Origin: Marsupella aquatica
Lineage: Eukaryota > Plantae > Marchantiophyta
Length of the DNA stretch: 64,000 nt
Reading direction: 5' to 3'
Assembly: GCA_973895155.1 (NCBI GenBank)
Contig: OZ316893.1
Coordinates: 13,656,359-13,720,358 of the forward strand
The notes below the pieces were generated by a model. It had not been told where the DNA came from and made no database searches. It was given only the letters and a program-made list of their open reading frames with translations. Shown here piece after piece: positions 6,356-59,277 of the stretch (positions are counted from its first letter, which is position 1; every line of letters starts with the position of its first letter). The position numbers were made by a program, and so were the translations under genes.

Positions 6356-6697
6356 TTATAATTGTGCACAATTGTATGTATATATGTCTTCCTATGGAAA
6401 AAACCCAGCCCTAAAACCATGTTATCCTAGTTCAACATAAGTTTCCATAAATCCTGTGCAAGCTTAAGAATCATATTCAAGAAAGTTTGGATCCCATTTA
6501 ATCTTATATCTCCAGAATTCACTAGTTCCCGAGATTTCTCGAGAAGTTTCCCAAAACTCATTCACTAGGCCAGATGAAGTTGTAGGGAAACTTCCAGTTG
6601 CGTCCCACACTTTCCAGACAGACTGCTCTTACTAAGTAGAAGTTATTGCTTACATTGTCGGCCCTTTAAAATCTGGAAGGTAACTTTCTATCAAAAT

Positions 6698-9523
6698 ATG
6701 ACATATACTATGTACGACACCCCTATATACAATGATAATACTAATTTTTTCCTTCCAATTAATGAATGTAATCACATTTTGATGTGTGATTACCATAGGT
6801 TGTTAGCGTTGGCCTCTCGGACCTCTGAGCCAGTCGAGGAGCCATCTGTCCCTCCAGGGCAGCGCCGGCTTCGCCAGTGCCTTCTATTGGGGCAGGCGGA
6901 GGAGTTTTCTCGGGCTGCTCGCTCCTTGGTCCCCCTCTCCCCCTCTCCTCCATCAGCCGAGACAGTTCTTGCCTTACGGTCTCTTCATCCCCCGGCTGCA
7001 TCTGAGGTTCCTTGTTTTCTCGGGAGCTTTACCCCTGAGACCGAGTTCTCCCTATCCCGTGAGGTGTTCTCCTCTGTCTTCCTTCATCTACCCCGCCTAT
7101 CCGCGGGCGGGATTTCTGGGATGAAGTTCGAGCACCTACGCGATTGCTTTTGTCCCGACGACTCGGCATCTGGTTTTTCTGAGTTGTTCCAGGTTTGTGC
7201 CCATGTCGCGGGGGGCCGTATTCCTCCCGTGGTCGCTTGGCTTTTGGGGGCCTGTCGGCTTCTGGCTATGGCCAAAGAGACTGGGGGTGTCAGGCCCTTG
7301 GCCATTGGGGAGGTCTTGTTTCGCTTGGTGAGCCGTTGTGTTTGTCTGCAAACTCGGGCTCCCTTTTCGTCACACTTTTTTCCTCACCAGTTTGGTGTGG
7401 CCACCCCTGGCGGCTGCGAGAGTGTGGTGCATGGCCTTCGTGCCATCTTGGATATCCACCCCGACTGGGCGGTTATTCAGGTGGATGTGGCTAATGCATT
7501 CAACTCTGTATCCCGTCGGGTCATGTTTGAGGAGTTGCGGGCCGCTGGAGGGGAGATCGCATCCCTCATCCCCTTTGCCCAGGCCTTCTATGGGGCCCCG
7601 ACCCCCCTGGTTTACCCTGACCATCTTGTTCCTGGGTCCTATGTGACCATCTCATCCGAGTCCGGGACTAGGCAGGGTGACCCCCTTGGTGGGGCGTTGT
7701 TTGCTATGGCGCACCTTCGTGCTATTCGTGCCTCTTCGGATGCCTTCCCGGGTTGCATGTTTCCTTCTGTTGCGGATGACACTCACATTGTTGCCCCGGT
7801 CTCACTTGTTGGGGACGCCTATTCCCACTTTGTGGACCAGCTTACCCTTATTGGTCTTTCAGTCCAGCCTCGGAAGTGTGGGGTTTGGTCTCGTCTCCCC
7901 CTCCCCCACTCTTTCACCCCACCTCTTGGTATACCCATTTGGCTCGAGGGCATTAGAGTCCTTGGGGTGCCTTTCGGGGGAGCGGTCTTTGAGCAGGATT
8001 TTCTTCTTGCGGCCCTATCCCAGGACGTTTTGCATATTGACCAGTTGGCGTCCTTGGGGGATGCCCAGATCTCCTTTTTGATCTTGGTCCTTTGTTTTGT
8101 TCGGCGTCCTTCCTATCTTCTCCGGACAGTCCCTCCTACCGCGATGTTCCTGTCCTTACTCTCGTCATTTGACACCACTGTGATGAGAGTCTTTGGTCAC
8201 CTCATTGGTCCGGGAGCCCTTGATGGAGAGGATGGTTCTTTTGCGGCTAGGCAGGCTGCGTTACCCCCATCGGGAGGGGGTATGGGGATGGCCTCGGCAG
8301 TGGACACTGCCCCTTGTGCGTTTCTTGGTAGTTGGGGGCAGGTGGCCCCTACCTTGGCCTCACGTTTCATTGTGGACCTTCGGCCTATCCTCTCTGACTC
8401 GGTCATGGGAGTGGAGACTTCGTCATGCACGTCCTTATTGCCGGAGGACGTGCAAAGCGTGGTCCCTGCTTTCGAGGGAGTTGTTATGGACAGCCCGGAT
8501 CGAGTCCAACAGGTGATTTCTGATCGCATGCACCGACACACCCTTTCCAGCATGCTTTCTGAGGCACCCTCGGATTTGGTACGAGCTCGTCTTTTATCCG
8601 GTTCGGGCGCTGGTTCGGGGGCTTGGCTATTGGCGAGTCCTCTTTGGGCCCCCTTTCGTATGAGTTCTTTTATTTTTACCACATCCACGCGCCTTCGGTT
8701 GGGTCTTCCTCACCCTTGCCTCTTGGGTCAGCCCACTTGCGTCTGTGGTGCGCCCCTTGATGGGCAAGACATTCACATTCTCAGGTGTGGTCATGGTAGT
8801 GAGAGGACTGCGACACACGACGACATTCGGGACGTGGTGGCGGCCATTGCCCGTGATTCTGGTTACCATGTCATGATGGAGCAGAGACATGTGTTACCTC
8901 CACGGGATGGGGTTTCTGATCGCCGTCGTGCAGATTTGGTATTCTCTCGGGCTGGTGTTCGTGCCCTTGGGGATGTCGTTGTTGCTGATCCGACTAGTGG
9001 GGCCAACGTGGCTTCGGCGGCTCATATACCTGGCCATGCCGCCGCGAGGGCAACTCGGCTGAAGGAGGAGGCCTATGCTGTGCGGTACCCCGGGGACCTC
9101 TTCTACCCGTTTGCCGTGGAGGTCTTTGGGGCGCTACACCCATCCTTTGACCGTTTTCTTCGCTCTTGCGCAGTTCAGTACGTCGAGCGGAGGCCCTTTC
9201 CCCCTATGTCGGTCATCACTGCATTCTTTAGACAGAGGGTGTCTGTTGCGCTTCAGCGGGCACAGGCGTTCACTATTCTTCGTAGGGGGGAGACTGTTGG
9301 TCTTAGGGCCGCTAGTAGGATTCCTTTCCTTTGCTTGACCCCCTCATGCAGTTCACACCGGAGCTTTACCAGGCTCTCCAGTTTGCTGATAGGTAGGCGT
9401 TTGGGTTCTTGTGTCTTTGGGCTTGCTTTTCTTGGCCCCTTGGTGGTTTCCCCCCTTGATTGGGTCTTTTGGCTGTGGGATCACGTCTCCCAGTTCAGCG
9501 TCCTTTGTTTTTTGGCAGTTTGA
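6698..9523 (+). CDS. Reverse transcriptase / RLE endonuclease ORF of the CRE-like element. The first ~35 codons are probably AT-rich flank, and the last ~60 aa may be out of the native frame.
   Basis: RT motifs: RPLAIGEVLFRLVSR, QFGVATPGGCE, DVANAFNSVSR, GTRQGDPLG, SVADD (YxDD position), VLGVPFG, GGMG. C-terminal motifs: CVCG..HILRC, R..HD, RRADLV, GDVVVADP, K..Y, PFAVEVFG (RLE). Confidence 0.85.
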   Translation: MTYTMYDTPIYNDNTNFFLPINECNHILMCDYHRLLALASRTSEPVEEPSVPPGQRRLRQCLLLGQAEEFSRAARSLVPLSPSPPSAETVLALRSLHPPAASEVPCFLGSFTPETEFSLSREVFSSVFLHLPRLSAGGISGMKFEHLRDCFCPDDSASGFSELFQVCAHVAGGRIPPVVAWLLGACRLLAMAKETGGVRPLAIGEVLFRLVSRCVCLQTRAPFSSHFFPHQFGVATPGGCESVVHGLRAILDIHPDWAVIQVDVANAFNSVSRRVMFEELRAAGGEIASLIPFAQAFYGAPTPLVYPDHLVPGSYVTISSESGTRQGDPLGGALFAMAHLRAIRASSDAFPGCMFPSVADDTHIVAPVSLVGDAYSHFVDQLTLIGLSVQPRKCGVWSRLPLPHSFTPPLGIPIWLEGIRVLGVPFGGAVFEQDFLLAALSQDVLHIDQLASLGDAQISFLILVLCFVRRPSYLLRTVPPTAMFLSLLSSFDTTVMRVFGHLIGPGALDGEDGSFAARQAALPPSGGGMGMASAVDTAPCAFLGSWGQVAPTLASRFIVDLRPILSDSVMGVETSSCTSLLPEDVQSVVPAFEGVVMDSPDRVQQVISDRMHRHTLSSMLSEAPSDLVRARLLSGSGAGSGAWLLASPLWAPFRMSSFIFTTSTRLRLGLPHPCLLGQPTCVCGAPLDGQDIHILRCGHGSERTATHDDIRDVVAAIARDSGYHVMMEQRHVLPPRDGVSDRRRADLVFSRAGVRALGDVVVADPTSGANVASAAHIPGHAAARATRLKEEAYAVRYPGDLFYPFAVEVFGALHPSFDRFLRSCAVQYVERRPFPPMSVITAFFRQRVSVALQRAQAFTILRRGETVGLRAASRIPFLCLTPSCSSHRSFTRLSSLLIGRRLGSCVFGLAFLGPLVVSPLDWVFWLWDHVSQFSVLCFLAV

Positions 9524-23329: not shown

Positions 23330-26100
23330 TATTTTCTCGGCGCACAAGCTCTATCGGCTTCAAACTCTCGAGCTACGGCGGCCGCAGCAACGAAGCGAGA
23401 CCAGTCGCCCTTTCTGGCCCGGACTTGAAACCTCCTCGGATTCTCGAACGAAACAGCGGATTCAGTCCTGAGATGTGGACGATGATTTCGTTCGGAGCTC
23501 ACTCTCCCTCCCCTCTCCAAGAAAACGGATTCGCTAGCAAAAACGAAACGCCTCGAGAAAATCTAGCGCAGAGCCGAGAGAAAAATGCACCAGACAAGCG
23601 TCCCAGAAGAATAAGCAAACCCAAACCCTTCTCAGTTTTCGAAGCGCCCGCGAGTTGGGAAACCAAATTTCGCAGCTTCCTCTCCACCCTCTCGACCGAT
23701 TCTCGAGCCAAACGCAACTCCCCACCGAAATCTCTCACAGAGACGAGAAAAAAAATGGATCACAGCGTACGAGAGGACGGAAACCAGATCCTACTCAGTT
23801 TCTGGGCACTCAAGAGATCGTCGGAGCCCAAATTTCGGTGCGCAGATCTTCGCATGCAGAGGGAGCAGAACGCAGCTTTTACGAGAAATTTATCGTTAGG
23901 AATCGTCATGTCCGCCTGTCAGGTCACGAATCATCCAGCCGAACGATCTCGCCAGCCGCCGAAGAGTCCACTCTCCTCAGTTCGCATGAAAGCGAAAGTC
24001 TCTCGATCGCTAACACGTAATCATCAATCAAATCTTCATCGAACATTGTAAACTACCCTATCCCGCCAAAAATGTCTTCCGTTCATTTACAAAACGAGAC
24101 ACAATGGGAACCAATCCAGGTCCTTCATTGAAAATTATTTTTTTCACACCGTCAGATCCTCCGGTACATCCCTTCTATCTCAGCTATCTGCCCAAGCTCC
24201 ACTTCACCTTCACCATCCCAAACATTATAATACCCAAAAACGTTATCTATTCCTTTACAAAATGACATTAAAGCAGGAGCCAATCCTGGTCTTATATCAA
24301 AAACTATTTTGACTCGTGGTTTTATATAAATATTATTATTATTACTATATTTGCATGGTCAGATCCTCCTTTACATCTCTTCTATCTCAACTATCTGTGT
24401 GAGCTCCATTGAGCCGTCCAGCACCTGTCCACACATTATAATACCCTATCCAACCAAAAACGTTTTTTACACATTAAATCTCCACACATTCTATCGCAGT
24501 TGTCTGTCCTAGTTTGCCCCAAACCTGCCTGAGACTAATTTAAAGATTAACTTAAAAAAATTTGCCTAATTTCAGAATTCTTATGTGTTCTCATTTCCCT
24601 TGTTTTGCGTTTGTGTTTCATTCCTTAGGGTATTGCATGGCTTTGTGAAGATGTCCACCAACGTTTACTAGCACCTAAAATTTGTTAGAGAAACTTGCAT
24701 GGCTCCGTTACCTTGTTGTGAGTGAGGTGGATCATGACAACACTCAACCAATGGCCAAGACAAGTGATCAAATCTAGTGGACTATAACTAGATTTGATCA
24801 AAAACAAAGAAGGGTGCAATAGTTGGTAGAATTCATTTGATAAAAATTACATACTCGAGAGAAGAAACAAATATACTCATTCTAAGTGTAAAACAATCCA
24901 AATAATATCCCTCCATGTCCCTGCATATAGCATCCTCATCCTGGAACATGAAAAGTTATTTTGTCCTCTAGCAAAAAGTTTAAGTTTTTTAGTGAAATAC
25001 AGGTGATCTAATTTGTTTGTGGCAAATATAAATAGTACATTGATTAGGAAGCCTGACATTGAAAAGTTGTGCACATAAGGTACAAGAATAAAAATACACA
25101 TGTAAAGAAAATTAATAATGAACAGGAAAATTTTAAGTCTATGATATTGGGTTCTGCATATACTATACACCAGTAAAGATACTTATGTATTTATCTTAGA
25201 TAATGACACTCAAATAAATTAAAACCATAAATTTAGGACACAAAACCATGAGTAGAACTTAAAGACATGAGGAGTGCACTTTAATTAGATCATTTCTTCT
25301 TCACTAAGGGCTAGAACTTCTGTGAGCTTTGTTAAAGGGTGGATGATCAAAAATATATCAAAGATTGAAAATTTAGAGGGGTGCCAGATTAAATTCAAAA
25401 TCTAAAGTATACAAGGGATGCACCCTGGTAAGACACATTGAATTAAAATACACAAGAAAAGAAGTTTGAATAAGACAAAATACTGGAAGATGGATTCACC
25501 ATATAGCAGTTTCATTCTTGAATCTGGATTTTTGAAGCAGTACAATATGAACAATTTTCGTAGAAAAAAATGAACATCACTTGTGTAAATAGTTCAATAA
25601 GCAGTTGGACAAAGGGGGTCAAACACAGAGAAACAAAGGGGAGGTAAAGAAGAAATGGGAAAGGGGAGGGTGTTGGACCTGATCTACTTTTTGGGTTTTG
25701 CTTATTGGGTTTGGTCAGCATTGTGTTTAGTAATAAAATCCCCTTGGGTTGGAGATGCTCTAAAAGAACAAAGAGGTTGTAGTACATGAGTTTTTGGAGT
25801 GAGGATGTACACTCTTTACAGTACTTAGCCACACATGCTCTATTTAGTGTGAGGTTATATTTGGGGTAAGTGCCAAAAGTGTGTAACACTAATGTGATCA
25901 CAAGTCAAATAGTGTCCCCTTCACTTACATTTTAAAAACAGAATGGGCATAGTCAAACCTTGGATATGAAAATAAATGAACCCGTGAAAAATATTTGAAT
26001 ACATCCTTACTTTACAAAATTCACATATCCTACATATAGCAAACTTCATAAATACCTTATTACAATATGGCTTGCTGGAAAGATCTGTTTGACTCTCTTT

Positions 26101-26283
26101 TATCAGATTATGAATAACCCATGTCTCATAGAAGCAACAAACTACCATCATATTTAGTCACATGAAACTGGTCCCCTTTGTCTCATCTTTATGAGACTAC
26201 TTACAGCCCAAAGAGAAGTGGGTTGAATCTGCTTTTCACCTGGTTCATCAACATCACTTTTATTAGATTATGAATAACCCATG
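26101..26283. repeat. ~160-bp tandem repeat; the second copy is split by the Gypsy insertion and resumes at 35795
   Basis: 26105 agattatgaataacccatgtctcatagaagcaacaaactacc...catcaacatc is matched by 26265-26283 plus 35795-35930. Confidence 0.9.
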
Positions 26284-26889
26284 TGTCGTGCGCATACAGA
26301 TCGCTACACAACATACATCGCTTGTCACATACATCCAAACATAGTCACACTGCCACATCACAAACACAAGAGAATGGAATACAAGTGGAACTCATGTCCA
26401 CACATGTCCAAAACCCACAATAATCTCCACACAATCGGCACAACGATCCCGGTCAACAATACCCCATCGATCCCGCACCGATCCGATCACACACGTATGT
26501 CAAGCCAACGCACCTTGCACTACTCAAGGAATCCACGTTACACAAAGCGGAGCTCACAGCCACCATAGCCACTCAAGCTCCTCTCTCTCCAAGGCTCAAC
26601 ATTGAAAGATGACCTTTCAATGCCTCACAAGTGAGAAGTACCCTCTCACACAAACCTGACGAAACCTTATCGGCTCCAATAGCACTCATACCAAACATAC
26701 ATACTCTAATAGCACGATATACTACTACACTACTCAGAATGGTGTGACAGCTGTCGTGCGCATACAGATCACTACACAACATACATCGTTTGTCACATAC
26801 ATCCAGACATAGTCACACTGCCACATCACAAACACAAGAGAATGGAATACAAGTGGAACTCATGTCCACACATGTCCAAAACCCACAAT
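26284..26889 (-). repeat. 3' terminal repeat block: segment a (26284-26421), segment b (26422-26749), GC spacer (26750-26751), second segment a (26752-26889)
   Basis: The two a copies are 138 bp each with 3 transition differences. Segment b matches 35467-35794. Confidence 0.92.
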
Positions 26890-26900
26890 TGCCCCCCTAG
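26890..26900 (-). promoter_or_regulatory. Polypurine tract (CTAGGGGGGCA on the element sense strand)
   Basis: The G-run lies immediately upstream, in element orientation, of segment a. Confidence 0.75.
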
Positions 26901-27062
26901 CTGGGAGTAAGGTCCCCTAACTCTAGCTAGCCATGAGTTTTACAAGGTTGATATACACCTTTTTAGGTGTGAAGATCAGGAGGCCGGGTGCAAGGGAGCC
27001 CCATCGATCACCTACCTGCAATCCATATCTGCCAAGAGAACACAAATGATAACTAGTCGGCT

Positions 27063-27584
27063 TCACCGACACTGAGGACACAACCATGATCCACTAGGAA
27101 TCACCTGCAATGGTGGTGTCAAACATGACATGTGCCATCCTCTAGAACACTTATCACAAATCAACATAGTAGTTGCTCCCTGAGCAGATCCACACAACAT
27201 ACATTTCAAGCCAGCACGAACATGTGCCAAGCTTGGATCTACTGTACCATCAATGTTGGGAAGGTGATATGGTGCACAGTTGCGCACATGATCCTTCCAA
27301 ACCATACCATCGCGTCCCTCCAACATCAGGACACCAGAAGGCCATACTTCACGCACACGTAAGATTGTCCGGCCTGTGGTCACATCAAGTGTCATGGGTG
27401 CTGTCTGCTGCAAATAAATATAATCACCAGGATGAAATCGCCGAATGCTTGCACGGTAACCTCCTCCACGAATAGTGGCATACCTCAAAGTATCACGATG
27501 TTGGGCAATGGCAAGGTTGTCGAAAGCCATGGGCATCACTCGCTGAAATACCCGTGCTCTCTCTGAACCTACACCTTGACCCAA
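27063..27584 (-). pseudogene. Integrase C-terminal region plus PHD finger (frameshifted relative to the integrase core)
   Basis: CMLC...MLICDKCSRGWHMSCLTPPL..IPSGSWLCPQC is a C4HC3 PHD pattern. Confidence 0.88.
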
Positions 27585-28633
27585 ACATCAGGATCATCCA
27601 AGTTCACAACTGATGCAGCATCACGACGAATAGCTGCTGGCAAATCTGGCTCTCTACCATAGAGCAAAAAGTAAGGTGAGAAGGATGCAAGTGATGCTTG
27701 CCGACTGAAACGGTAGCCCATAGCTAACCAAGATAGCTGGAGATCCCAATCTCCCAGATGACCAACCTGCAAGCCATACTTACGCAATCCTCTCTTCACA
27801 GTTTGCACAACTCTCTCAGCTAATCCATCTGCCTCAGGATGATCACGAGAGGTAGTACGATGATCAATCAGAGCTTGTTCACACAAACTCTCAAACTCTC
27901 CACGAAACTCAGTTCTCTGATCAGTCAACACCTCAGCTGGTGCTCCAAAATGACTGAGTACACGATCCAAAAATGTAGCAGCAACTCCTCCACTGGCTTT
28001 ATCTGGCAACGCCACTAGCTCAATCCACTTGGAGAAGTGCTCCACCATGACCAAAACATACCGATTATGACGTTGGGTAAGAGGTAATGGACCAGCAAAA
28101 TCCAAACTCCAACGATATCCCAAACCCATGATCGGCAACGGGTGCAACTGGGGAGTGGGAGCATTAAATGATGCTCTCACTCTATCACATACCACACACT
28201 TAGCTATCAACTGTTGGACATGAGTGTGCATACCACGCCACCAATACTGTGTCTGCAGCAAGCTGTAAGTGCGCTTTACACCAAAGTGACCCAACTCCTC
28301 GTGCGCATGTCGCACCAAATGTACTCTCTGTGATGGTTTTGGGACCACCAACACTCTACCATCATGCAGTACTCTCAAAAGATGGTTTCCCTCCCATTGA
28401 AACCTCTTGGCTCTCTGTAGAACCCTGTCACGTTCCTTGGCATCAACACTCCCAACAATAGAACCACTGTGCAAATATTCCAACACTCTCGCATCATTAT
28501 GAATATCTTGTTGTCCAGTAGTTACCTCACTAACATCCACATCTGAAGACTCATCATCCACTCCATCCAATGAGGTAGAGTCCACAGATCCACTGTATGC
28601 TGGCACCCAACAAAGAAGGCAGATGCATGCCAT
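27569..28633 (-). pseudogene. Gypsy integrase (HHCC zinc finger + DDE core)
   Basis: HEELGHFG...CVVC, SLDFAGP, VLTDQ, HPEADGLAERVV, SPYFLLYG. Confidence 0.93.
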
Positions 28634-28689
28634 CCTGGCACCATCTCCTTATCTGACTCATCATGCCATCTGGCTCCAGTCTCATCTTG

Positions 28690-30144
28690 CTGACTGGTAC
28701 ATGGATTGCGGCTTAATCCATCTGCATCCAAGTTCACTTTTCCAGGCCTATGCACCACCTGGAAATCATACTCCTATAACAACAATGCCCATCGTGCAAG
28801 CTTCCCTGTAAGTTTGTCAGACTCCATTAACCACTTAAGAGGCTGATGATCAGTGATCAAGGTGAAGGGGTTATCAAACAAGTAGCAACGAAAGTGTGCA
28901 ACAACCCACACTGCTGCCAAACACTCTCCCTCATAAGAGCTATACTTAGCCTCTGCTGAATTGTTTGATCTACTGGCATAAGCCACAACAAACTCATTCC
29001 CCTCATCATCCTTCTGAGTCAGCACTGCTCCAAGTCCTACTCCACTCCAATCAGTGTGTAGCTGAAATGGTCTGCCTGAAATGGGTCTTCTCAAAATAGG
29101 GGATGATGCCAACCTTTGCTTCAACTCCTGAAAGGCATGCTCCTGGTCATCACCCCAAATCCATTCCTGATCCAACTTAGTGAGTATGATCAAAGGTTTA
29201 GCAAGCTGGCTAAATCCTTTAACATACCTCCTGTAGTAGCTCGCCAATCCCAAGAATGCACGAACTCTACTCACATCAGTAGGACAAGAAATTTGTGTAA
29301 TGGCCTCCACTTTAGTCTGTTGTACACCTAATCCCCCTGGGTATATAGTGTGGCCCAAATACTCAATCTGGTCTTGGAAGAACTTACACTTGCCAGGATG
29401 GAGCTTCAACCCATGTGCTCTCAATCTCTCCAACACAATCTGCAAGTGCTGTTGATGTTCTTCCACAGTAGAAGAATAGACCAAAATATCATCAATATAA
29501 CATCTGACAAAATCCAAACCTGCAAGGATTCGATCCATGACTCTCTGGAACTCAGCTGGTGCATTCTTCAACCCAAATGGTAAGAATAACCACTGATACA
29601 AACAATCTTTGCCATAAGAATCAATCCCCTAGAATGCTGTCTTGGACCTGTCAACATGCCTAATTGGAAGCTGATGGTACCCTGCCCTCAGATCCAATGA
29701 ACTGAAAACCTTTGCATGCCCCACAGCATCAAAGATCTCCTCAGGTGTGGGCATGGCATATCGATCAGATTTTGTCTGGCGATTAATAGGTCTGTAATCA
29801 CCACACATGCGCCTATCTGTGTAATTGCCATGCACATCCTTCTTGGCTGGCATCACTGTGGCAGATGCATACTCCCCATATGAAATCTCCACCAATCCAG
29901 CCTCCAACAAATCTTGAGTTTTGCTTTGAATCAGAGCTCTCTCCATGTCACTATAATGGTATGGTCTACGAAAGATTGGCGCATCACTAGCCAATTCAAT
30001 CTGAATACCAGGGCCCTTCAGTGTCCCCAAATCCTTCATGTTGAATGCAAAACAATTCCAATAACTCTTCAAGAATCGATGCATGCAACGTCTCTTCTCC
30101 CTTGTTAACTTAGGGCCAAACTGTGGTTCCCAACTCTCCACCAA
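28690..30144 (-). pseudogene. Gypsy reverse transcriptase and RNase H, interrupted by in-frame stops
   Basis: RMCGDYRPIN, SLDLRAGYHQL, KTAF*G, LPFGLKNAPAEFQ, YIDDIL, LHTDWS, YEGECLA, LITDHQPL, LARWALLL*, HRPGKVNLDADGLSR. Confidence 0.93.
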
Positions 30145-30399
30145 ATCCCTAATATCTCTTTGTAGGGTAGAAGAGATAGCCGATGATTGCTATTTAGCAG
30201 TAGATTGAGCAGTCCCTTCCTGCTCAACAATCTGTCCAGCCTTGGCCAATCCTGCCATAGATCCATGGACTGTCTGCTCGCCCCCAGCTGTGGTCAATAC
30301 TGTCTCAGTGGACCGCAAGCTCACCAAGGGACAATCAGTAATTCCAGCAGAGCACATCCGCAACTGTTCAGCTACTCTCAAGCTGATAATCCAAGTCAA

Positions 30400-31340
30400 A
30401 CAATTCAGGTCCATTGCTTGACCAAGAACTTGGCGCCGCAAACCCTCTGACACAGAGACAACTGCAGTGGTGCCAGTCAAAAATCCCATAGCACGCTCTC
30501 TCTCATCAACAGTAGGCTCCACTAACTGCTGGAGAGCTGTGTCTCACACAAGTCCAGGGCCACCTACTCTGAATGCATATGAAGCAGAGTGGCTTACAAG
30601 AGTGGGTAATGCACAACGTGGGCGCCCAATTGCATTGACCATTGCCAATGGAGGTCTATCAGGTTGGGTCACACCCTGTGCCCGACGCCCTAGATCCAAA
30701 ATATCATCCACCACTAAGGCTGGTGAGCGTGGAATGCTGTCAAATGCGCGCTTCAGCACCTCATATGGGATCAAATTAGTCCACCACAAGCGTGGATAAT
30801 GTGCACGAGAACCCACACGTGCAGCATCCAATAACACAGCAGGTCCAATCCAAGACCTCACCTGGTGAACACTGGCAATAATTCGACTACGATCATCACC
30901 TAACAATGGCACATTCTCCAAAATGTATGCTGGAGACTATGTCTGATGTAGCTAGAGATGACGCAGCACCCGTAACATCTCCCAAAACAATGCAGAGCGT
31001 GGATCATGAAGTCCATGCCCAATGCCAGCTCTAGATTAGCCCTGACATGGCCAACCAGCAATCACCAAATCAATGGGGCTAACACGATGTAGATGATCCG
31101 CCCCCAACAATGAAATATCAGCAGGTAGTGCATGTTGATAACCACGAACAACATCCACTGGCAGCAATTGTGGATATCTATCCACCAACATAGCCACATG
31201 TCGCAATGAGACTCTCCGTGCTGTCTCATCTGTCTCCACATACAAATAACGACGCACATGAATTCCTGCCTGAAGAACTGTAGCCAATCCAGTGCTAATC
31301 CCACCAAAAAGATCCAACAAACAAATACCCTCCGGTGGAT
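30400..31340 (-). pseudogene. DNMT3/DRM-like C5 cytosine DNA methyltransferase domain within the Gypsy polyprotein (in-frame stops)
   Basis: Motif I LDLFGGISTG; YLYVETD; motif IV IDLVIAGWPCQG; DPRSALFWE; motif VI ILENV; motif VIII RAHYPRLWWTNL; motif IX ERERAMGF; motif X RRQVLGQAMD. All are in one frame with the flanking protease and RT ORF segments. Confidence 0.88.
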
Positions 31341-31739
31341 ATTGCCAAGCAATAGGAGTGGTATCCAATGGTGAAAGAGTCACAGGTCCATCTGCAAGAG
31401 ACTGCTCTGCTCCTGACTGTGGTGTAAAAGCATGACGCCATGCATCATGTACCAATCATGCTGCTGCCTGTGGCAAGGCTTGTGCAGTGCCCCACACTGG
31501 TGGCACAACACTGCCAACAGGTAATCCTCGCATGATGTGCTCCTCATGAGACTCCTCCAATGGTGGAACATCGGCTGCATGCGCATTACCTTCAATCAAA
31601 TCATCAGGTCCAGCAATTACACCACTGAATGCTGCCAAAGATAATGGTGAGGATTTAGGGCCTCCCACAGGTCCACTAAATCTCACTGAAAATTTGCTCA
31701 ATCGAGCATCTCCTAACTGCCAATCAGGTCTATATGACA

Positions 31740-32110
31740 CTGATTCCTCCCAAAAATCAAGAATAAATCCCATGGGGTAGAGCACTGTACATCCCACCAA
31801 CACATCATATGACTCTGCCTTAGTCAAAATAGCTCACGCCTGTATCTGTGAGCTATCTGTGGTATGACCTTCCTGAATCCTCAAATCAAGTGGTCTCCTG
31901 GTGATATGCTGTGTAGGTGTAGGTCCCCCCAATGAAGTCTGAATGGGAAAGGGACAATCCTCCAAATCCTTTGGACGGAATCCCAATCCACGTATGGCAG
32001 ACTTCCCCAACATCAAGGGCTGAGCACCAATATCCAATAACACTCTCTCTGGCTGGTATACTGCTCCAAAAGGCCCAACTAATCGAAAGATACCACTCCG
32101 ATTATCCAAT
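31740..32110 (-). pseudogene. Aspartic protease domain of the Gypsy element
   Basis: VLLDIGAQPLMLG (D-T/S-G-like) and downstream YDVLVG. Confidence 0.75.
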
Positions 32111-32939
32111 GACACAACACTAGGTTTAAACCTAGTCCTCTCAAATGCAAGGCGTGCTGGTAAATCCACCAACCTCGCTGCTGCTGCATGCCATGTCTCA
32201 CTAGTAGCAGTAGGTGGTATGGTCTTCACTGCTTCAACACTGCAAGCTGCTTCTGCATGGGAAGCAACAACTGGAGTGTCCTCACAGAGTGTAGCTGCCA
32301 ATCTGAACACTTCTGCAGGACCAACTCCCAAGTTCAGCATGTCTATCGCTGAAAATAATGGGGCGCGTACCATGGCAGTAGCCGCCCCCAGCAAGGTACC
32401 TATCATCCCTACTGCATCACTACCTGATTCTGCCAACTTACACACATCAGGGTTTGTCTGAACCGAATTCATAGAGGCAGTGTGAACTGTCTCTGACAAT
32501 GTAAAAGACTGAGGAAGCTTTGTCTACCGACGTGCATCCCCCCTCTATGGATCTAGCTCCACTACTGCTCCTTGGGGCTCAAGAGCTTTGGCTGCCCCAC
32601 GTGTCAAAGCTGCTGATGCATCAATATGTGTAGTGCCACACATGAATCCCATGGTGGCAAGATCTCCATCAGCTCCATAAGATGTGGAAGGACCATGGGA
32701 TGTGGAAGGTCCATAGGATGTAGATGCCCATCACCAGAAGTAGGTCTCACCTGGGAACTAGCCATGGCAGCTAGCTGTTGCTCCAATTGAGCAATCTTAG
32801 CATCCTTTAGATCTATGGTTACAGCAGGGGCAGCGTCACCTCCCTGTCTCCCTGCATGTGGCATGCCACGACCACGTCCACCACCTCTACCTCCTCCTCC
32901 TCTTCCCTGATCATGTGTACAGGATCCTCCTCTCCGTAA

Positions 32940-34181
32940 CTCAGGATGGAGTGAGAAACACCTATCTTTGGTGTGTCCAGGAGCTCCACAATGATCACAC
33001 TGTCACTGATCAGGTGCTGCTGCTCCTCCTGATCCTCTGTGATCTGGGCAATACCTCTGTGCATGATCCCCACCACAGGTCCAACATCCTGACTGCTGTC
33101 TAGCATAAGAGGGCACAGGTCTCTGGCTGGTAGACTCTCGTGCAATAGGCTTCTCCCTTTGGCTCTTCCGTGCAATAGGCTGTGGTGTAGATGTAGATGC
33201 AGCCTTTGGTGCTTCCTTGGCAAATCCGGAAGTCACCACCTTCTCATTCACCATATTGAGCTCAATACGCTCAGAAAGGGTGAAAACAATTGCTAATGTG
33301 GGATCTGCATCCCTAAGCAGAGTGACATCTCTCACTCTGCATCGCAATTCTCTGTCTAGAATTGCATACCAAAACTGGACTGCTTGAGCCTCTATCACTT
33401 CCTTGGTGACAGTGATCAATCTGCGCATACGAGTATATGCCTCACGTAGACTCTCTCCAGTCTTGCGCTGGAACTCCTGGAGACCCTTCAACTTATCAGT
33501 TCTCACACCCTGATAGTTCTGCTTCAGTACCTCAAAGAATTCCACCACAGGATTAAATGCTGGCGTAACTCCAGTTCCTGTCATAATCACACTGGCAGGA
33601 GTAGCGGTGGATGCTACTGGAGTGCTGCTAGTGGATGGTGTGCCACTCTGGCTAGTGCTGCTAGAAGAGGCAGCAGCTGTGGCAATGGGTTGGGCAGCCG
33701 CACTAGTGCCATAGGTGATGGACACGTAATTAGGTGACCAATGCTGCCTCCATGCCTCAATCTCAACCAAATGAGTCTTCCGAAACTCATGGTAGTCATC
33801 CATGGGTGGCCCCACCAAATGCTGAAATAATCCCTTCCATGCCATGAAAGGGGTAAACAACGTGGCGTTACGCAATGTCTGTATATCGCACCACGTATCA
33901 AACTCCTGGATGAAGTCATCCAGATCAATTGTGCCAACTGCACCAGAGTATCGTCGTGGGCCCTTTGTAGCCCCGTACATCTCGTCCATATCCCACAACA
34001 AAGATGCAACCACCTGATGACGAGGAGAACTGGTCATTGAGTCCTCGTCGGAATCACTGTCTAAAGCTGCACTGCTGACTGCTACCAATGCCGCTGGCCA
34101 AAACTGTGCCCCACTCCGAGTGAAACCGGTTCGTCGTCCATCGGGTAATCCAACAGCACCAGAAGAATCCATGGTGACCAA
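32940..34181 (-). pseudogene. Gag with two CCHC zinc knuckles
   Basis: Retrotransposon gag-like QRKTGESLREAYTRMRRL; knuckles CWTCGGDHAQRYC and CDHCGAPGHTKDRC (~32957-33000). Confidence 0.85.
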
Positions 34182-35454
34182 CCCTAACCTAATCTATGTG
34201 CTAACCCTAAGGGCAATCTATCCCTGTCAGCACCACAAGCACTCACCATGGTGTGTTGGGCATCACTCCAACATCACCAGGAGAGAAATACATAGCACAA
34301 CTAGAATGTCCGGTTGCAAACCCGGATCACTCCGGTAGAATCAAGCGCCAACGCCAACTAACATGGCGCATAAACAGGAAGCATGTGTGGAGAGGATCCA
34401 ACAACAAGAAGAGGATTTACCACAACTCTCCACACCAATCAATCAGAAATATATGTAAATAATATGCATATAGTTCAATGTAGGGCCTTCATAATAGGTC
34501 TCAAGAATCCCGCGTCAAATATTCAAGAATCCATCGCAAACTAGCTAAAACAGAGTATCTAGATGAATTCAAAAGTGCATAAAACCCCTAAGGCCTCATT
34601 CCTTGGACATCAAATGTGGAAGGAAGCATGTACAATGCACCACATAGAAACTTGCTAGTTAAGCGCATGAGAGGAGGAATAACTTTGGGATGGGTGACCT
34701 CTCACTTGTCATTATGCACCAAATCTGCCACTCCAAAATGGCAGCACTTGCAACTACTCCTCACGTACCAGCAAGCTGGCCCGCCCGCTCCTGCTCCGCC
34801 CTCACGCCCCTCGTCCCGAGTTGCCTCGAAGCCTCGAAACGCTGAGATGAGCCAAAGAGTGAGCCCTTCACGCCCGCAACGCTTCGCTATGCCGAATCGA
34901 GTTTCAGATTTCCGTCTCTCAGTTTCCCTTCACAGAATGACGGATAGTCGGGAGTTGCGGATCAGCTGCGAGCAGTCGGCGCCCTGTCGATCGGATTCGC
35001 GAGTTGCAGCAACTTCGCGCGGATTGGCCCTTCCACATAATCGCGCGGAGCATCGGCAGATCGCCACTTCACTTGCGCCTTATCACAGTAGTCGAAAATC
35101 AGATCTGAAGCCTCGCGGATGACTTCCACTGTTCGACGATCTGCCAACATTCGCGGAATGCTTTCCTCCACGAAAACCAACATTCAAACTCGGCTACAAT
35201 AGCAGCGTTATGTGCCCAGATCCGGTGACACAATGAGCGATCTGCGATCTTCAACGATCTGCGATCTCTCTCCTCAAAATAGCATTCGCCAACACAAACT
35301 GCAGCAGATTGAAGGACTAACAATCTACTCAATGAGATCCGAGATACCACGGATCCATGCAACAGATTGAAACGATTTCCACAAACCGTCACCAACTCAA
35401 TCAATCCGAAACGAACTTCTGTTTGCACAGTCCGCACAACAGAGTTCGCATCTG

Positions 35455-35466
35455 ATCTTTCAATGT
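35455..35466 (-). promoter_or_regulatory. Putative self-priming PBS (ACATTGAAAGAT) complementary to a 12-mer inside segment b (35644-35655)
   Basis: Exact 12-nt inverted match abutting the 5' repeat. There is no TGG-starting tRNA PBS. Confidence 0.7.
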
Positions 35467-35794
35467 AATCTCCACACAATCGGCACAACGATCCCGGTCA
35501 ACAATACCCCATCGATCCCGCACCGATCCGATCACACATGTATGTCAAGCCAACGCACCTTGCACTACTCAAGGAATCCACGTTACACAAAGCGGAGCTC
35601 ACAGCCACCATAGCCACTCAAGCTCCTCTCTCTCCAAGGCTCAACATTGAAAGATGACCTTTCAATGCCTCACAAGTGAGAAGTACCCTCTCACACAAAC
35701 CTGAAGGAACCTTATCGGCTCCAATAGCACTCATACCAAACGTACATACTCTAATAGCACGATATGCTACTACACTACTCAGAATGGTGTGACA
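35467..35794 (-). repeat. 5' terminal repeat, segment b only (328 bp)
   Basis: Matches 26422-26749 with about 5 substitutions. Segment a is absent here. Confidence 0.92.
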
Positions 35795-37829
35795 CATGTC
35801 TCATAGAAGCAACAAACTACCATCATGTTTAGTCCCATGAAACTAGTCCCCTTTGTCTCATCTTTATGAGACTACTTACAGCCCCAAGAGAAGTGAGTTG
35901 AATTGGCTTTTCACCTGGTTCATCAACATCAAGAGCCACTCTGACAATACCATCAATGTCAAGGGCAACCTGCTTCCTTCAAAATTCACTCAGTAATTTG
36001 CTATGATATTCTGAAGCTCAATTGTGAGTTGGTTTGTAGACCATACACCATTGACATTAAGTGACAAACTGGTCCTTATCATTGATTCTTGTGCATAAAA
36101 CATGCCATGTCAGTCAACAAAATTGTTCACCTTAGCTAGAGAGTCCCTAGCCTATGTCAAAAACTAATGCTTGCCTGGATCTATCAATTCCCTACAGGTA
36201 CCTGGTGTCCCAATTTTCATGCACTGTTCAGCAAGCAACATCTCTGCCTTCTTCTCTTCCCACCTCTTTGTCTAAACATCTTTTACCTTTGAAATCACAA
36301 ATGAATCACACTGGTGGCAAAGGTAAGTTGAATTTGATACCAGATCTCTCTCATAATGTCTTACAAAGCAGCAATGGTACCTGGTATATGGTTGTGCCCA
36401 TAGTAATTGTCCATCAATTGAATCAGTTAACATTCAAGAACAACTGACTTTGGAGAATTATATGTGCATGATGCTCAGCCAAATTGGCAATGTTGGGCTC
36501 TTGGAAAGCACACCTAACGAAGTTTCTAATGGTAGAAGGATGGGGAGTTTTCATCAATGATGAGAGAGAAAGACAAAAATGAATATTTCACTGGTTGCTT
36601 CAAGAAAACAATAGCATAGTTTGACTCAGCAAAAAAAACAATTCTAGACTTGAAATTGTCTAGTGCAACAAACAAAGACAAAAAGATACACATACTACAT
36701 TACCAGTGACATTTTGACATAATCCTGATTCTCTTTCCCTTGCTCTAGCAAATCCAGCTATGATGAGCAACCCACATCCTTCCCATGTTCTCAACCAGTC
36801 AATCTTGCACAAACATTAAGCCAAAACACAAGGAAAACTTTACTACGCACATATATACAAACACATATGGCTGCTGATATGCATACCATTGGAATGGGTT
36901 ACCACTAAAAACATTAACACCTCTAACTATCAATTTTTAACAAATTGGAGGTGACAGTAAATAGTGTGACTTGTCTGGAAATTCAAGAGCTACCCCTAAT
37001 TAGTGTGTGGATGTGACACTAATTGCTTAGTGACAGTAAGGCCCAACTCGCAAGGCCCAAATTGCATGTGAAGGGGTAATCGTTGCTTGCAAGCAAACAA
37101 CAAAAAACTTACCAATGTGAGTTTAAAAAAAAAACCAATTCACTATCAAAGTTAGTCCATAGCTAGCCAAAACTTGGCTAATAAAATACCATTTTTGGAA
37201 CTACTCTTTTGGCTAGCCAACTCGCTAGCCATGTGGAGTCTTAGAAATTCACTCAAAATATAAAAGTGAGGCAAACAAACAAAAGAAGTTAAAAACCACT
37301 AGGGACTAGTGAACAACATTCTCCTTGCTCTCAAAAATTCCTGCCTGCTCGCATGCTTGGTTTGTAATATGGCCGGCTTTCTACAGGGCTGCCACATGCG
37401 AGTTGGGTCTAAATTCTGTGAGGAGTGTACCTTAATTTTGAACTTCTAAAAGAGAACCGACCAGGTCCACCCCAAGCCTCAATCCCATCCATGATTTAAG
37501 CTTATCCTAAAATGGTGCCTTCACACATGTCGCTGGGCGTTTGTTCGTCGTCATTCTGACCCACTTGGCTCATCTCCACAGCAAATCATATGTGGAAAGC
37601 CCGATCCATCGCGAAAAGGTCTGAATTTGCTTTACTGTGTAGCGTCGATCGTCTCTTGAAAGTCTTCCTGTCCATTTGTTTGTGGTTCCGAGTTTCCGAC
37701 CCACTTCGACGAATCTTCCCTTTGAATTGATTTCTGTGCATTTGCCCTATCCATCCATTCCTGAAAGCTTGAAGCGAAGATGAACATGACGAATCGCAAA
37801 CCAGTCAAATGCACCGGCTGATGCAACAG

Positions 37830-53350: not shown

Positions 53351-54763
53351 CTAAAAGAACACAAAATGGGTAGCAAGGTTTGTGACAAAAGGGTCTAGGA
53401 GAAGCCTGGTCAAAAAATAGAACAAGACTCCAAGAGAAATGGAAAATGGAAGAGCTGGAAGTGCACGACGCCAGACAGCTAGCAGCAACAGCGTTGCTCC
53501 CAGCCCAGCAACGATTGCGAGATAGCACGCATAAACTGTCATCATATCATACATAGCAGCCCTGCCCACCAGAACACTGTAAAATATGAAGTCACCCAGC
53601 CCCAATTTGATTGAACCTGACAGCACCCCTCCCTCCCCATCGCCAGCAACATTATCTAGAATATCCTCGATGTTCGTCCCGCCTCTAGTGCCAGCTTCCA
53701 TGCCATCCATGGCTACTGCAGACTGCGTTGCAGTAAGTGCTTGAGCTTGAGTCTGATGGCTTACCAAGGCCAATGTCTCCTCATCTTCACCAGTAGCGAG
53801 AGTGCTTACTGGCAAAACATCATTATCACCTGCAGAAACTAGGGAAGGAGGACGAGCCACACCTTGTACCTGACCTGATTCTGGCCTCGGTAGATTCCTC
53901 TGAGAATGTCCAGCAGGTGCCAGCCCAAGTTCAGTCGAATTACTTCCCGGAGCACCTGCACCAGGTCTTCTTCTCCATCTCGGAGGCCGCTGGACAGGTT
54001 GCGGAGGCCGAATTGAAGTAACAGAACCATCACGTGAGCTTGCTTCAGGGGCGGCTGTTTGGGGGACGTACCCTGGCCGTGTAACTGGCCTAGCTTCATA
54101 AATCAAGGCTGGAATGTCTTCATCTCTAGCAATAGCAAGCTCAACGAGCATATTTAGAGGTCCCCCAGGAACCAGAACAGCAACCACATCGTACAAAGCC
54201 ATGGCCAGGAGGAGAATCCATGTTGTCCACTCGGGCAGCATAGTAAACCAGTATGCCACAAGGACACCGATAAGCACAAGGTAACCCTGAGTGAAGACAA
54301 TTGGCATTTTGCAGAAGAACACCGCCATAACGCCCACTGTTGCAAAATTGTAAAGAATTATGCTAAATGTGATAACATCAATGGGGATGGAAAAGTACTG
54401 TACCAGTTGGATGGCCAAGCCACCCCCCATGTAAGCCAGGACCATGAAAGCCGAGAAACCCATGTACCCTTTGAGAATCCTGTTACATCTAAAGTAGAAG
54501 AGAGCCACAAGGACAAAGGTGACCACAGTGACAATTGCCACAAACACCAGAGCATTCAACAGTGCACCTCCCAATTTCTCTGAAAATGAATCTGATTCCT
54601 GCTCATCGTACACCAGCATGGCAATGCTCGCAGCTGGAGCATCCCCTCCGTGTGGAACGAGGGTGTGCACCAACAGCACTACAAGAAGCATACAGAGGGA
54701 GACTGGACTGATAATCCCTAAAATCTCTGCTCCCAGATGATCCAACACACTGCCTTCTGCCAT
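53351..54763 (-). CDS. PSN: Presenilin (gamma-secretase catalytic subunit), intronless CDS
   Basis: SPVSLCM, LPEWTTW, ALYDVVAVLVPGGPL (YD), IPALIYE, IKLGLGDFIFYSVLVGRAA (GxGD), ALPALP (PAL). Likely start is MAEGSVLDHLG at 54763. Confidence 0.96.
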   Translation of the reverse strand: MAEGSVLDHLGAEILGIISPVSLCMLLVVLLVHTLVPHGGDAPAASIAMLVYDEQESDSFSEKLGGALLNALVFVAIVTVVTFVLVALFYFRCNRILKGYMGFSAFMVLAYMGGGLAIQLVQYFSIPIDVITFSIILYNFATVGVMAVFFCKMPIVFTQGYLVLIGVLVAYWFTMLPEWTTWILLLAMALYDVVAVLVPGGPLNMLVELAIARDEDIPALIYEARPVTRPGYVPQTAAPEASSRDGSVTSIRPPQPVQRPPRWRRRPGAGAPGSNSTELGLAPAGHSQRNLPRPESGQVQGVARPPSLVSAGDNDVLPVSTLATGEDEETLALVSHQTQAQALTATQSAVAMDGMEAGTRGGTNIEDILDNVAGDGEGGVLSGSIKLGLGDFIFYSVLVGRAAMYDMMTVYACYLAIVAGLGATLLLLAVWRRALPALPFSISLGVLFYFLTRLLLDPFVTNLATHFVFF

Positions 54764-57387
54764 CGCTGCCGCTACGGCAAAGAGAGAGATCTCAAGAATT
54801 GTGCATCTCCCTTGCACTAACCTCTACACAAATTAGAATTCCAAAAAGCAGAGAAAAAAGATGGCATCCAAATGTCCGTCTAATCCAAACCAAGGCTCCG
54901 CTCCATCGCAGGAGAACCCTAAATGTCGAAAAACGCTACGAAACATCAGCACAGAGACGTAGAGATCCGCAGTCAAATTGCGGGCGAGATTTCCAGAATC
55001 GGTAATGATCATCCGCCACATTACACTTCTCGCCTCCGGCAGCTACGCAATCCGCTCTACACTCCAGAGCTGCAACACTTCAATCCCTACAAGAGTTTTT
55101 CTCTTCGTATATTTCTGTACTTTATTGAAGAAACCCACATCGAGGGCACTCCAAGGTCATTTTGAGATTTGTTCTGGTTGACTCTTCGAATATTTGGGTT
55201 TTCTAGATTGCAACCCCTTTTTTGGCATAGTAACATCTAACAACCTTGCCACTCAATTTGTTTATCACAAGAAGTGCTTTTTGTTTGTGGGTTAATAGAA
55301 TTAACCACTGTTAGCTCATTCACATCCAATGACAGCACTTGAACTCAGTTTTGCATTGCAATTTGACAGCTCAAGTCTGCCTTAAACCAAATAAAAAGAG
55401 AAGTGCCCAAGATTTCTTCATTTTTCACATTCTTCTCTTCTAGGGTGAGATTTTGCTCCACAATTTCAAGACTGCTTATATTCCCTGCCCTGCCCCAGCC
55501 GACCTTTCCCCATACCCTGCCCTGCCCCGGCCCTGCCCCGGCCCTGGCCTGTCCCAGGATGGCCGGCCGGGAACTGACGGACAAGTTGTCTTGTTGTCAG
55601 ACACGACAACTTGTCATTTGTCGGCTCCAAAAGGGGTCAAATGTTGGATATTCGCTTATATTCCCCGGCCGGTCGGGAAAGGCCAGGACAGGCCGGGGTT
55701 GGGCCGGGGCCAGGACGACCGAGTGTGACACATGCCGGATGTTGGGGTCCAGACCCCTCATTTGTCGAACAAGTCCAAACCCAGTAGTCCCCCTGGGCAG
55801 GAAATGGGCCACCCAGTTCCAATTATTTTCATTGTTTCCCCTGGGCAGGAGGGGGTTGGTTATTTTGTTTGTTTGTTTTGTGCACCCGGGCAGGAGTTGG
55901 CCCTCGTTCATTTGTGTGTCCCTTTGTTCAATTTTTCCTGTTTCCATTCATTAGGAAGGTCAACCTTACCCGACCGACCCTTTTACAGCAGCCCAAACTC
56001 TGGGGTCAGGGCCATGACACAGAATGAGTGGGGCAAAGTTTTTGGCTCCAATGATAGTGTTGTTAGGTGTTGAAGTGATTCCAGCAATTGAAACTCAGGC
56101 TACCCAAGTCACTAACAGTTATCCACTGGTAAACCAACACTGAGTTGATGCAGTTAACCCTAAATTTTGTTTATTTTGACCTCAGTCAAAGCTGGCTTTG
56201 GTCAAGCCACCATTCCTGCAATCAAACTCAGTCTACCAGCGTCACTAACAGGTACTGTTAACTGATACCGAGTTGATGCAGTTGCACTGCGTTTGGGTCT
56301 TACCACCCAGTCAAAGCTGGCACCTGTAGTATTCTCAAGTGACAATAAATCCCTTGTGAAATTTTTCTTTGTATGACTATACATGGTTATGAGGCATTAC
56401 CCGGGGTGAGGCCACCAAAACCCATGAGCAAGCCTGGCCTGGGGATTTCTCAAATTTGAATGACAAATATGGTCAGATGCAAGTGGTAGACAGTGACAAA
56501 CACAAATTTTTGCAATGTAAAAATGAAATGAATGGTTCAAAAGTGCATGCCCAGAAATTCATCTCCGCCCGGGACAATGGGCTGTGACCCCCTCAGATTC
56601 ACTGCCCTGTGAGATTACAGCCCATTACCCTCTTGGAGATGGGTTACCCCTACACATTCCCGCAATCAAGATTGAGCCAGAGTCATTAACACTTATCAAA
56701 TGTTGAGATGATACAAGTAACTGCATGCCATCGGACCTTCTGACCTCGATCAAAGAAAATAACCAACCTTCTTTTATACCCTCTAATAAAAGTAGTCTCT
56801 CCCTCCCAATCCAACCACTTGGGGGCCACAGGGTTCCTTTTTAGGCTTGCGGGCAGAAAGTTCTGCCCAAATGGAGAGACCAACTTCAATTCAACTGGTT
56901 CCAATTATTTTCATTGTTTCCCCAGGTCAGGAGGGGGTAGGTTATTTTTCTTTGTTTGTTTTGTGCACCCGGGCAGGAGTTGGCCCTCATTCATTTGTGT
57001 GTCCCTCTGTTCATTTTTTCCTGTTTCCATTCATTAGGAATGTCAACCTTAGAGCAACCGCACCGGTTTTCCAGTCCAACTCCTGTAAAGGGGAATTCTT
57101 TGGCCTATAGCATTTGCCGGCCCGAAGCCTGCCTCCCCCTGGCACCGGTCAAGACTCTGAAGGCCGCCAAACTTCTTTAACCCAAGTTCGAACCAGCACT
57201 TTCCAGTTCAAACCACACTTTTTGCCCCAACACCACAGCGAGAAGCTCTCCCGCGACCATGACGAACAAGGTCTACTTCTGAAACATCATGTGCAGTCGA
57301 TGTGCACTGCGAGCCCAAAAATTGAAACATTGCGTCGCCTTCTTGAATTGCAATTCTTTGTCTATTCTTGGCTTGTGCTGGTGAATC

Positions 57388-58718: not shown

Positions 58719-59277
58719 CTAGAGTATCAAATTCTGATGTACCTTCTTTCATTGACCAAGCAATTAATAAAAAGTGTGCACATTGTGTCCAAAATTGCTT
58801 TGTATTGCCAATTCACTGCGCAAGATCCACTACAATTGCTTTCTACTGTCAATCAAACACATTTCATGTCTAGAAGAATTTTCTGTTGTTGTCTCAACAA
58901 AGTCTTGAAAATTGTGTCTCAAAAATTCCATATACTTTTTGCAGATTACATAATTAAATCAGAACTATGGAAAGATCCCATGTTCATCTTGAGCTACACC
59001 CAAATGTTCTAGTAGATGGTGAGCACAAAACAGAAGCAAATAAAAGCTTCTAATTTCTGCACATTGACAACAAATTTGATAGGAAAAGCAATTCCGACAG
59101 AAAAAACAGTTTCAACAGAAAAAACATAATTAAACTACTCACAAACCTCACCTAGTGGGAATTTCTATTCTCAGCAGAGTGAGAACCGAGGAAATAACTT
59201 CACCCTGGTTCTCACCTATCGTGCTATCCCTATGTCAAAAGTGTCTGCCACAATGTCATCTTCAAAAGTGTCTCGAA

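Follow-up and report, generated by a model that had tools for sequence, protein, structure and literature searches.

How an element with a DDE integrase comes to carry split and permuted long terminal repeats (LTRs) is the question raised by a decayed Gypsy-type element in a 64,000-nucleotide stretch of Marsupella aquatica DNA (contig OZ316893.1, positions 13,656,359 to 13,720,358), hereafter called the window, in which coordinates are given. The element occupies positions 35794 to 26284 of the minus strand, and its parts follow in the sense order b - internal region - a - GC - b - a. With its signals included, the order is target-site duplication (TSD), b, primer-binding site (PBS), open reading frames (ORFs), polypurine tract (PPT), a, GC, b joined directly to a, and TSD. 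The insertion ends are the halves of a palindrome, the GC spacer of this palindrome is absent at these ends, 4-bp TSDs flank the insertions, and the ends defined by the PBS and PPT are joined to each other. The use of an attachment (att) site internal to the LTR is very probable. With less assurance, the favoured reading for this DNMT3/PHD Gypsy clade is that the integrase cuts between CA and GC inside the LTR, not at the predicted ends of the complementary DNA (cDNA), and that, before insertion, host end-joining closes the latter ends into a circle.

Repeat a comprises 138 bp and is present as a1 (26752-26889, minus strand), the first part of the one complete LTR, and a2 (26284-26421, minus strand), which forms the 3' end of the element with the sense-strand end GACA; the copies have 3 differences. 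Repeat b, of 329 bp including one shared base, is present with 5 differences as b1 (35466-35794, minus strand), the 5' end with the sense-strand start TGTC, and at 26421-26749, of which positions 26422-26749 (minus strand) make up b2, the second part of the complete a-GC-b LTR. The GC spacer (26750-26751) between a1 and b2 completes the a/b join GACAGCTGTC (26746-26755), the palindrome GACA-GC-TGTC, which has its sole exact occurrence in the window here and is the putative integrase att site in its uncut form. A 1-nt microhomology at the join of b2 to a2, the predicted junction of two reverse-transcription ends, places it at 26421 or 26422. The right junction of this copy, GACA-CA-TGTC, resembles the palindrome by chance; other targets are unrelated to it.

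The tetranucleotide CATG is found on both sides of the element (26280-26283 and 35795-35798). The insertion is located in the second copy of a tandem duplication of about 160 bp (26094-26283 and 35799-35931), and the upstream duplicate of the target (about 26117-26256, 94% identical) represents an empty site with a single CATG, indicating that the TSD is 4 bp long. The layout, coordinates, palindrome, TG..CA ends and 4-bp TSD proposed in the first-pass annotation all hold, the TSD being confirmed by the empty tandem target; its inventory of features was correct in layout and overlooked the DNMT domain, the PHD finger and the self-priming PBS. Contigs of sequencing runs X1 and X2 contain the left junction (26180-26313) with 0 differences and have 30 letters on the element side, against a bridging rule of 31. 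Neither a read nor a contig that covers this copy's a-GC-b-a block from end to end was found in the sequencing runs. The copy is broken: its pol frame of 1,250 codons is interrupted by eight in-frame stops, and there are frame changes.

Many other insertions of the window family have loose ends at 26284: unrelated flanks precede this position in 31, 17, 35 and 28 contigs of all four runs (two organism labels, two studies; agreement 0.37-0.39). Relatives of the element, taken as the best 80 of 222 metagenome loci with reverse transcriptase (RT) and RNase H at 53-83% identity, were surveyed in short-read contigs with end probes from one family, the matches not being de-duplicated. Of the 44 matches at the start of a, 31 continue outward into the PPT and 12 into b, and one has an internal deletion; of the 35 at the end of b, 20 run on into the PBS, 12 into a and three into other element sequence. 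Non-element DNA was met in 29 of the 40 matches beyond the end of a, the others leading into b (10) or a contig end (1), and in 23 of the 33 before the start of b, where a preceded the remaining 10. Host DNA therefore adjoins the palindrome halves in 52 of 73 matches, and the PBS- and PPT-defined ends in none of the 79 matches at the relatives' loci. The insertion ends are thus not the outer ends of the LTR, as the two whole LTRs of Ty3/Gypsy elements would have it, while PBS, PPT, TG..CA ends and TSDs are all present. An exact search with a 22-nt LTR pattern gave 0 matches in the metagenome contigs, and no relative was found in viral contigs.

The counts of b-to-a joins and of 3' ends were made in one best-sampled family of relatives. 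Among 11 distinct insertions complete on one contig, the TSD is an exact 4-bp repeat in eight, matches at three of four bases in two and is missing in one with a truncated end; both of two further insertions, followed across overlapping contigs, have matching TSDs. All 13 a/b joins examined, from four LTR families with non-aligning b parts, retain a recognisable palindrome and a 2-nt spacer; two joins are exact, nine carry C>T or G>A changes only, and two have one transversion. The a-b-a block is also found in the more distant loci L042, L073, L075 and L080; in the contigs of the three more distant families, no 5' ends were found. The expectation of many independent insertions ending at the palindrome halves was thus borne out by 52 of 73 matches and 8 of 11 exact TSDs, and complete a-GC-b LTRs at the outer ends, which the first-pass annotation had named as the sign of a one-off event, occurred in 0 of 79 matches.

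The ends of the linear cDNA can be predicted from the priming signals. An 11-nt self-priming PBS (35455-35465, minus strand) is complementary to 35645-35655 on the same strand, the predicted first 11 nt of a transcript that, by likeness to Tf1, would start at 35655; none of 100 shuffles was as good. A stretch of 12 bases that begins with the last base of b1 and continues inward pairs with 12 bases inside b (35644-35655), better than 100 of 100 shuffles, and a related family has the same self-pairing with a different sequence. In 17 copies, nine pair over at least 10 bases from the last base of b and two at nearby offsets. The opposite end is marked by a G-tract PPT (26892-26899, minus strand; sense strand TAGGGGGG), which stands before a1 in all four LTR families. 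Together, the self-priming PBS and the G-tract predict a linear cDNA running from the start of a to the end of b, with a-GC-b as its LTR; the predicted cDNA ends have no TG/CA signature common to the families. An LTR ending at GATTACA, with CA lost at the join, was considered and dropped, as the 11-nt primer assigns CA to the PBS. The predicted transcription start lies inside an inverted repeat (35645-35667, 26600-26622), with a second PBS-like 9-mer just upstream of the self-primer in the window and L017 families, in different sequences. In several copies (b region of L018, L034 and L077) TATAAA is located about 31 bases ahead of the predicted start of the self-primer and supports this start; the window copy is without TATAAA.

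Seven distinct b-to-a joins fall into four types. Four resemble that of the window, the end of b being joined three bases past the G-tract with 1-nt microhomology; one (L046) retains two more PPT-side bases, one (L021) contains an insert of 17 nt, part of which matches b sequence close by, and one (L034, a rearranged copy) retains nine PBS bases plus 5 nt. Retained primer-site bases and inserts also occur at retroviral circle junctions. Two-LTR circles arise by end-joining in the nucleus (PMC7197481). Variable b-to-a junctions had been proposed as the sign of end-joining, and four types among seven joins agree with this.

The 23 distinct 3' ends comprise 16 with a alone, corresponding to the form b-ORFs-a, and seven of the a-b-a type. 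Counted out were L031/L032 (12-nt loss at the palindrome followed by another insertion), L014 and L066 (a interrupted) and L071 (contig end, same insertion as L070). Six b-ORFs-a copies are complete on one contig, with exact TSDs in four and matches at three of four bases in two, and two more have matching TSDs across overlapping contigs. These copies are predicted to be dead, since they lack a 3' copy of the R repeat. In an integrase tree of 26 rows, star-like and weakly supported, a-only and a-b-a copies are mixed, with 6 changes versus 8.2 after shuffling and 34-40 of 500 shuffles as low. A solo-like b-to-a piece of a distant family (L077/L078, about 1283-1690), without a clear TSD, could come from recombination between b copies or from a double cut.

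These structures could arise as follows. The RNA would start in b1, and its first 11 nt would anneal to the PBS and serve as primer, in the manner of Tf1, which primes with the first 11 bases of its RNA (PMC7175516). Standard strand transfers and the G-tract would give the linear cDNA a-GC-b-ORFs-a-GC-b, with ends devoid of a shared TG/CA signature. The junction spectrum suggests that b would then be fused to a by end-joining. The integrase would finally cleave GACA-GC-TGTC, with loss of GC and formation of a 4-bp TSD; the product of this step is seen in the insertions, and the enzyme responsible is presumed. A single cut in the 5' LTR would generate b-ORFs-a-GC-b joined to a, which should be able to regenerate both LTRs, and b-ORFs-a may come from a one-LTR circle, from cuts at both palindromes or from later recombination between a copies. 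In this scheme the self-priming, the assumed cDNA ends, the end-joining and the cleavage by integrase are all putative. For the last of them a precedent exists: retroviral integrase can cut an internal palindrome of two att ends, HIV-1 integrase cleaves the palindromic two-LTR junction, and circles can feed integration (PMC1905944, PMC4372172).

Several observations weigh against this reading. The mirror form (b joined to a-GC-b-ORFs-a), with a in front of b at the 5' end, was seen in 0 of 17 5' ends versus seven a-b-a-type ends among 23 3' ends (Fisher p=0.013). On a two-LTR circle the palindrome occurs twice in equivalent form, and random cutting should therefore produce mirrors about as often as forward copies. 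Their lack would be explained either by fast loss through recombination between the close 339-bp b copies, or by a polar cut, or by a templated join. The first-pass model of a two-LTR circle cut inside one LTR stands as regards the internal ends; the mirrors that it predicts are missing, and it did not foresee the b-ORFs-a majority. Four of the seven joins, together with other window-family contigs ending at 26426, share one type, as inheritance would give, and in six of the 17 copies, which are old, the self-primer pairing is no better than in shuffles. No circle or cDNA was observed in the data analysed. The test of the PBS- and PPT-defined ends covers the relatives' loci, not the window's own family, and the b end of the latter has unrelated flanks in only one of four runs (4 contigs) among the rows listed. 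Finally, the census consists of short-read contigs, of which at least one is likely to be chimeric: L046 differs from L048 at the end of a, although the two share 99.4% identity over 2,713 bp. For L027/L037 and for L040/L041/L044, the assemblies gave the same a-flank junction more than once.

The best surviving alternative, though an unlikely one, keeps the internal att site and dispenses with the circle. The integrase would cut the palindrome in the linear cDNA, keep hold of both att ends and insert them, and host repair would later join the free reverse-transcription ends in the chromosome. This would give the same product and the same junction spectrum, and cuts at both palindromes would yield the majority b-ORFs-a form. 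However, each productive insertion would have to survive a chromosome break, no large flank deletions were seen at the seven joins, and the missing mirror form is likewise unexplained. Of the circle step proposed in the first-pass annotation, the internal cut products are confirmed, while the circle itself stays conjectural, as cutting of linear cDNA with later end joining has the same outcome.

Slightly less likely still is templated copying similar to that of PAT and Ngaro elements. The transcript would cross the b-to-a join, which would be inherited, and strand jumps to the internal a-GC-b junction would restore the outer ends; the integrase would then cut the rebuilt junction. The same A-ORFs-B-A-B topology is found in those elements (PMC4157794), and such copying would account for both the forward-only form and the dominant join type. 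Against it, the self-priming PBS and the G-tract stand exactly at the join boundaries, as for ordinary LTR priming, and three of the seven joins have PBS remnants, PPT-side remnants or an insert. Insertion of an end-joined circle by a cut at the internal palindrome is retained as the preferred reading.

The coding content of the element bears on the other alternatives. All features are on the minus strand and follow the Gypsy pol order RT-RNase H-integrase. RT and RNase H (28774-30189; PF00078, PF17917, PF17919) are interrupted by a stop. The integrase (27572-28648) has an H2C2 zinc finger (PF17921, E 7.7e-17) and an rve core (PF00665, E 2.7e-13) with D, D, E present; its C-terminal part with a PHD finger (PF00628, E 1.4e-11) occupies a separate frame in the window copy (27066-27587), and no chromodomain was matched in the window element in Pfam. 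Upstream of RT, a C5 cytosine methyltransferase domain interrupted by stops (30547-31455; PF00145, E 7.1e-10) was matched in Pfam by reading frames with X at stops. It is DNMT3-like in a PDB comparison, where DNMT3A, 3C and 3B rank above bacterial enzymes (best match DNMT3A, E 3.7e-10). A likely protease region (31459-32523) has no Pfam match in the window copy; in the relatives P0017 and P0019 an aspartyl protease precedes DNMT. The likely gag (32604-34193), conserved at the same place in relatives, also lacks a Pfam match and contains two Cys/His knuckle-like motifs. The position of DNMT varies, being between RNase H and integrase in some relatives (P0028, P0035) and between protease and RT in others (P0017, P0019).

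Cut-and-paste remobilisation, in which the integrase would act as a Ginger-like transposase on the TGTC..GACA ends of inserted copies, is very improbable. Ginger elements do use Gypsy-like integrases, TGT ends and 4-bp TSDs (PMC2836005), but the inverted end here is 4 bp against terminal inverted repeats of 40-270 bp, RT, RNase H, PBS and PPT are conserved, and the GC-spaced head-to-tail junction would be unexplained. Ginger elements also lack RT, and the window element does not fit this definition. Even less credible is integration of the circle by a tyrosine recombinase acting in trans, in the manner of DIRS and PAT elements, of which the split-repeat topology is typical (PMC4157794). The 4-bp TSDs are unrelated to the junction, the ends are TG..CA and the 2-nt spacer is lost; D, D, E are intact in 29 of 55 integrase rows, most others showing G>A-type changes. 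No tyrosine recombinase was matched in Pfam among the sense-strand ORFs, three sense frames over most of 30100-33100 and six frames of 34100-35460, the antisense frames of 27000-34100 lying outside the scan. A one-off aberrant insertion of an ordinary LTR element, or a misassembly, to which the lack of a contig across the whole a-b-a block of the window copy lends some room, is already largely refuted and rejected, because the same layout, TSDs and palindrome joins recur in independent assemblies of relatives, with no canonical end in 79 matches and with 3 and 5 base differences between the repeat copies.

Elsewhere in the window, a Harbinger-like pair of convergent ORFs (57496-60336; Plant_tran, E 3.9e-55; NAM-associated, E 5.3e-13) lies between 82%-identical direct repeats (55965-56764 and 60618-61426). 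A 981-aa ORF with an RT domain (6578-9523, E 1.5e-10) probably belongs to a non-LTR retroelement, and an intronless presenilin ORF is located at 53354-54763 on the minus strand (E 3.1e-121).

If the preferred reading is correct, a natural DDE integrase would use an internal site of a (likely circular) cDNA as its normal route, and the ends of reverse transcription would differ from those of insertion. The role of LTR circles as true integration precursors would become testable with a 10-bp substrate, and split direct repeats could be reached without a tyrosine recombinase. A high-copy plant family would then have been missed or mis-cut by programs needing two whole LTRs, a rule applied in the survey of PMC6317226. 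Only tentatively can this be extended to a widespread green-lineage clade of DDE-integrase LTR elements in which the att site has moved inside the LTR, end-joined two-LTR circles, which lead nowhere in other LTR elements, are the sole productive intermediate, a preference for cutting the 5' LTR is built in, and most insertions are one-LTR by-products invisible to LTR finders.

Named relatives occur in Marchantia, Calypogeia, Sphagnum, Klebsormidium, Closterium and Tetraselmis. The K. nitens protein P0068, not known to be the published KnitGypsy-Dnmt3, shows 49% identity across 445 residues of RT-RNase H. KnitGypsy-Dnmt3 of Klebsormidium nitens has Gypsy domains and repeats "the same as that of a DIRS retrotransposon" (de Mendoza et al. 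2018, PMC5890265, Fig. 4c legend). Judged by sequence, the window element is probably its kin: both have the Gypsy domain set, a DNMT3-like domain in Pol and A-coding-B-A-B repeats. That description is, however, one legend sentence, and the parts of the text and supplement covered give no TSD, att palindrome, priming signal, b-ORFs-a form or mechanism (PMC5890265). KnitGypsy-Dnmt3 is from K. nitens, whereas the present clade occurs in land-plant sequence (Marchantia, Calypogeia, Sphagnum). Streptophyte Gypsy-DNMT3 elements have been named, without a mechanism in the part of the source covered (bioRxiv 10.64898/2026.05.21.726589). The pathway had been called potentially undescribed; no description of an internal att site as the normal route of any LTR element was found in the literature searched, subscription journals and Repbase being outside its coverage, and the topology had already been noted for KnitGypsy-Dnmt3 (PMC5890265).

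Among other systems, REM1 of Chlamydomonas has a truncated reverse-frame integrase (review, PMC2774666), and Troyka (PMC12440569), considered as a related system, proved unrelated. As is proposed here, retroviral integrase cuts an internal palindrome of two att ends, but there the palindrome is the circle junction and the cut restores a normal provirus as a side route (PMC1905944, PMC4372172), whereas the palindrome of the present clade has a fixed position within the LTR and all ends seen come from it. In Tf1/Sushi and Tcn1, 11 bases at the 5' end of the RNA likewise pair with the PBS, and the Gypsy domain order is shared; they have two whole LTRs and, in Tcn1, chromodomains, in contrast to the PHD finger, DNMT and split LTRs of the window element (PMC7175516, PMC6317226). 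PAT, Toc, Kangaroo and Ngaro elements have the same A1-B1-A2-B2 repeat order together with a tyrosine recombinase, in place of which the window element has an rve integrase, TG..CA ends and 4-bp TSDs (PMC4157794). Overall, the element resembles self-priming Gypsy elements up to the cDNA and PAT/Ngaro elements in its layout, differing from the former in its split LTRs and from the latter in its DDE integrase.

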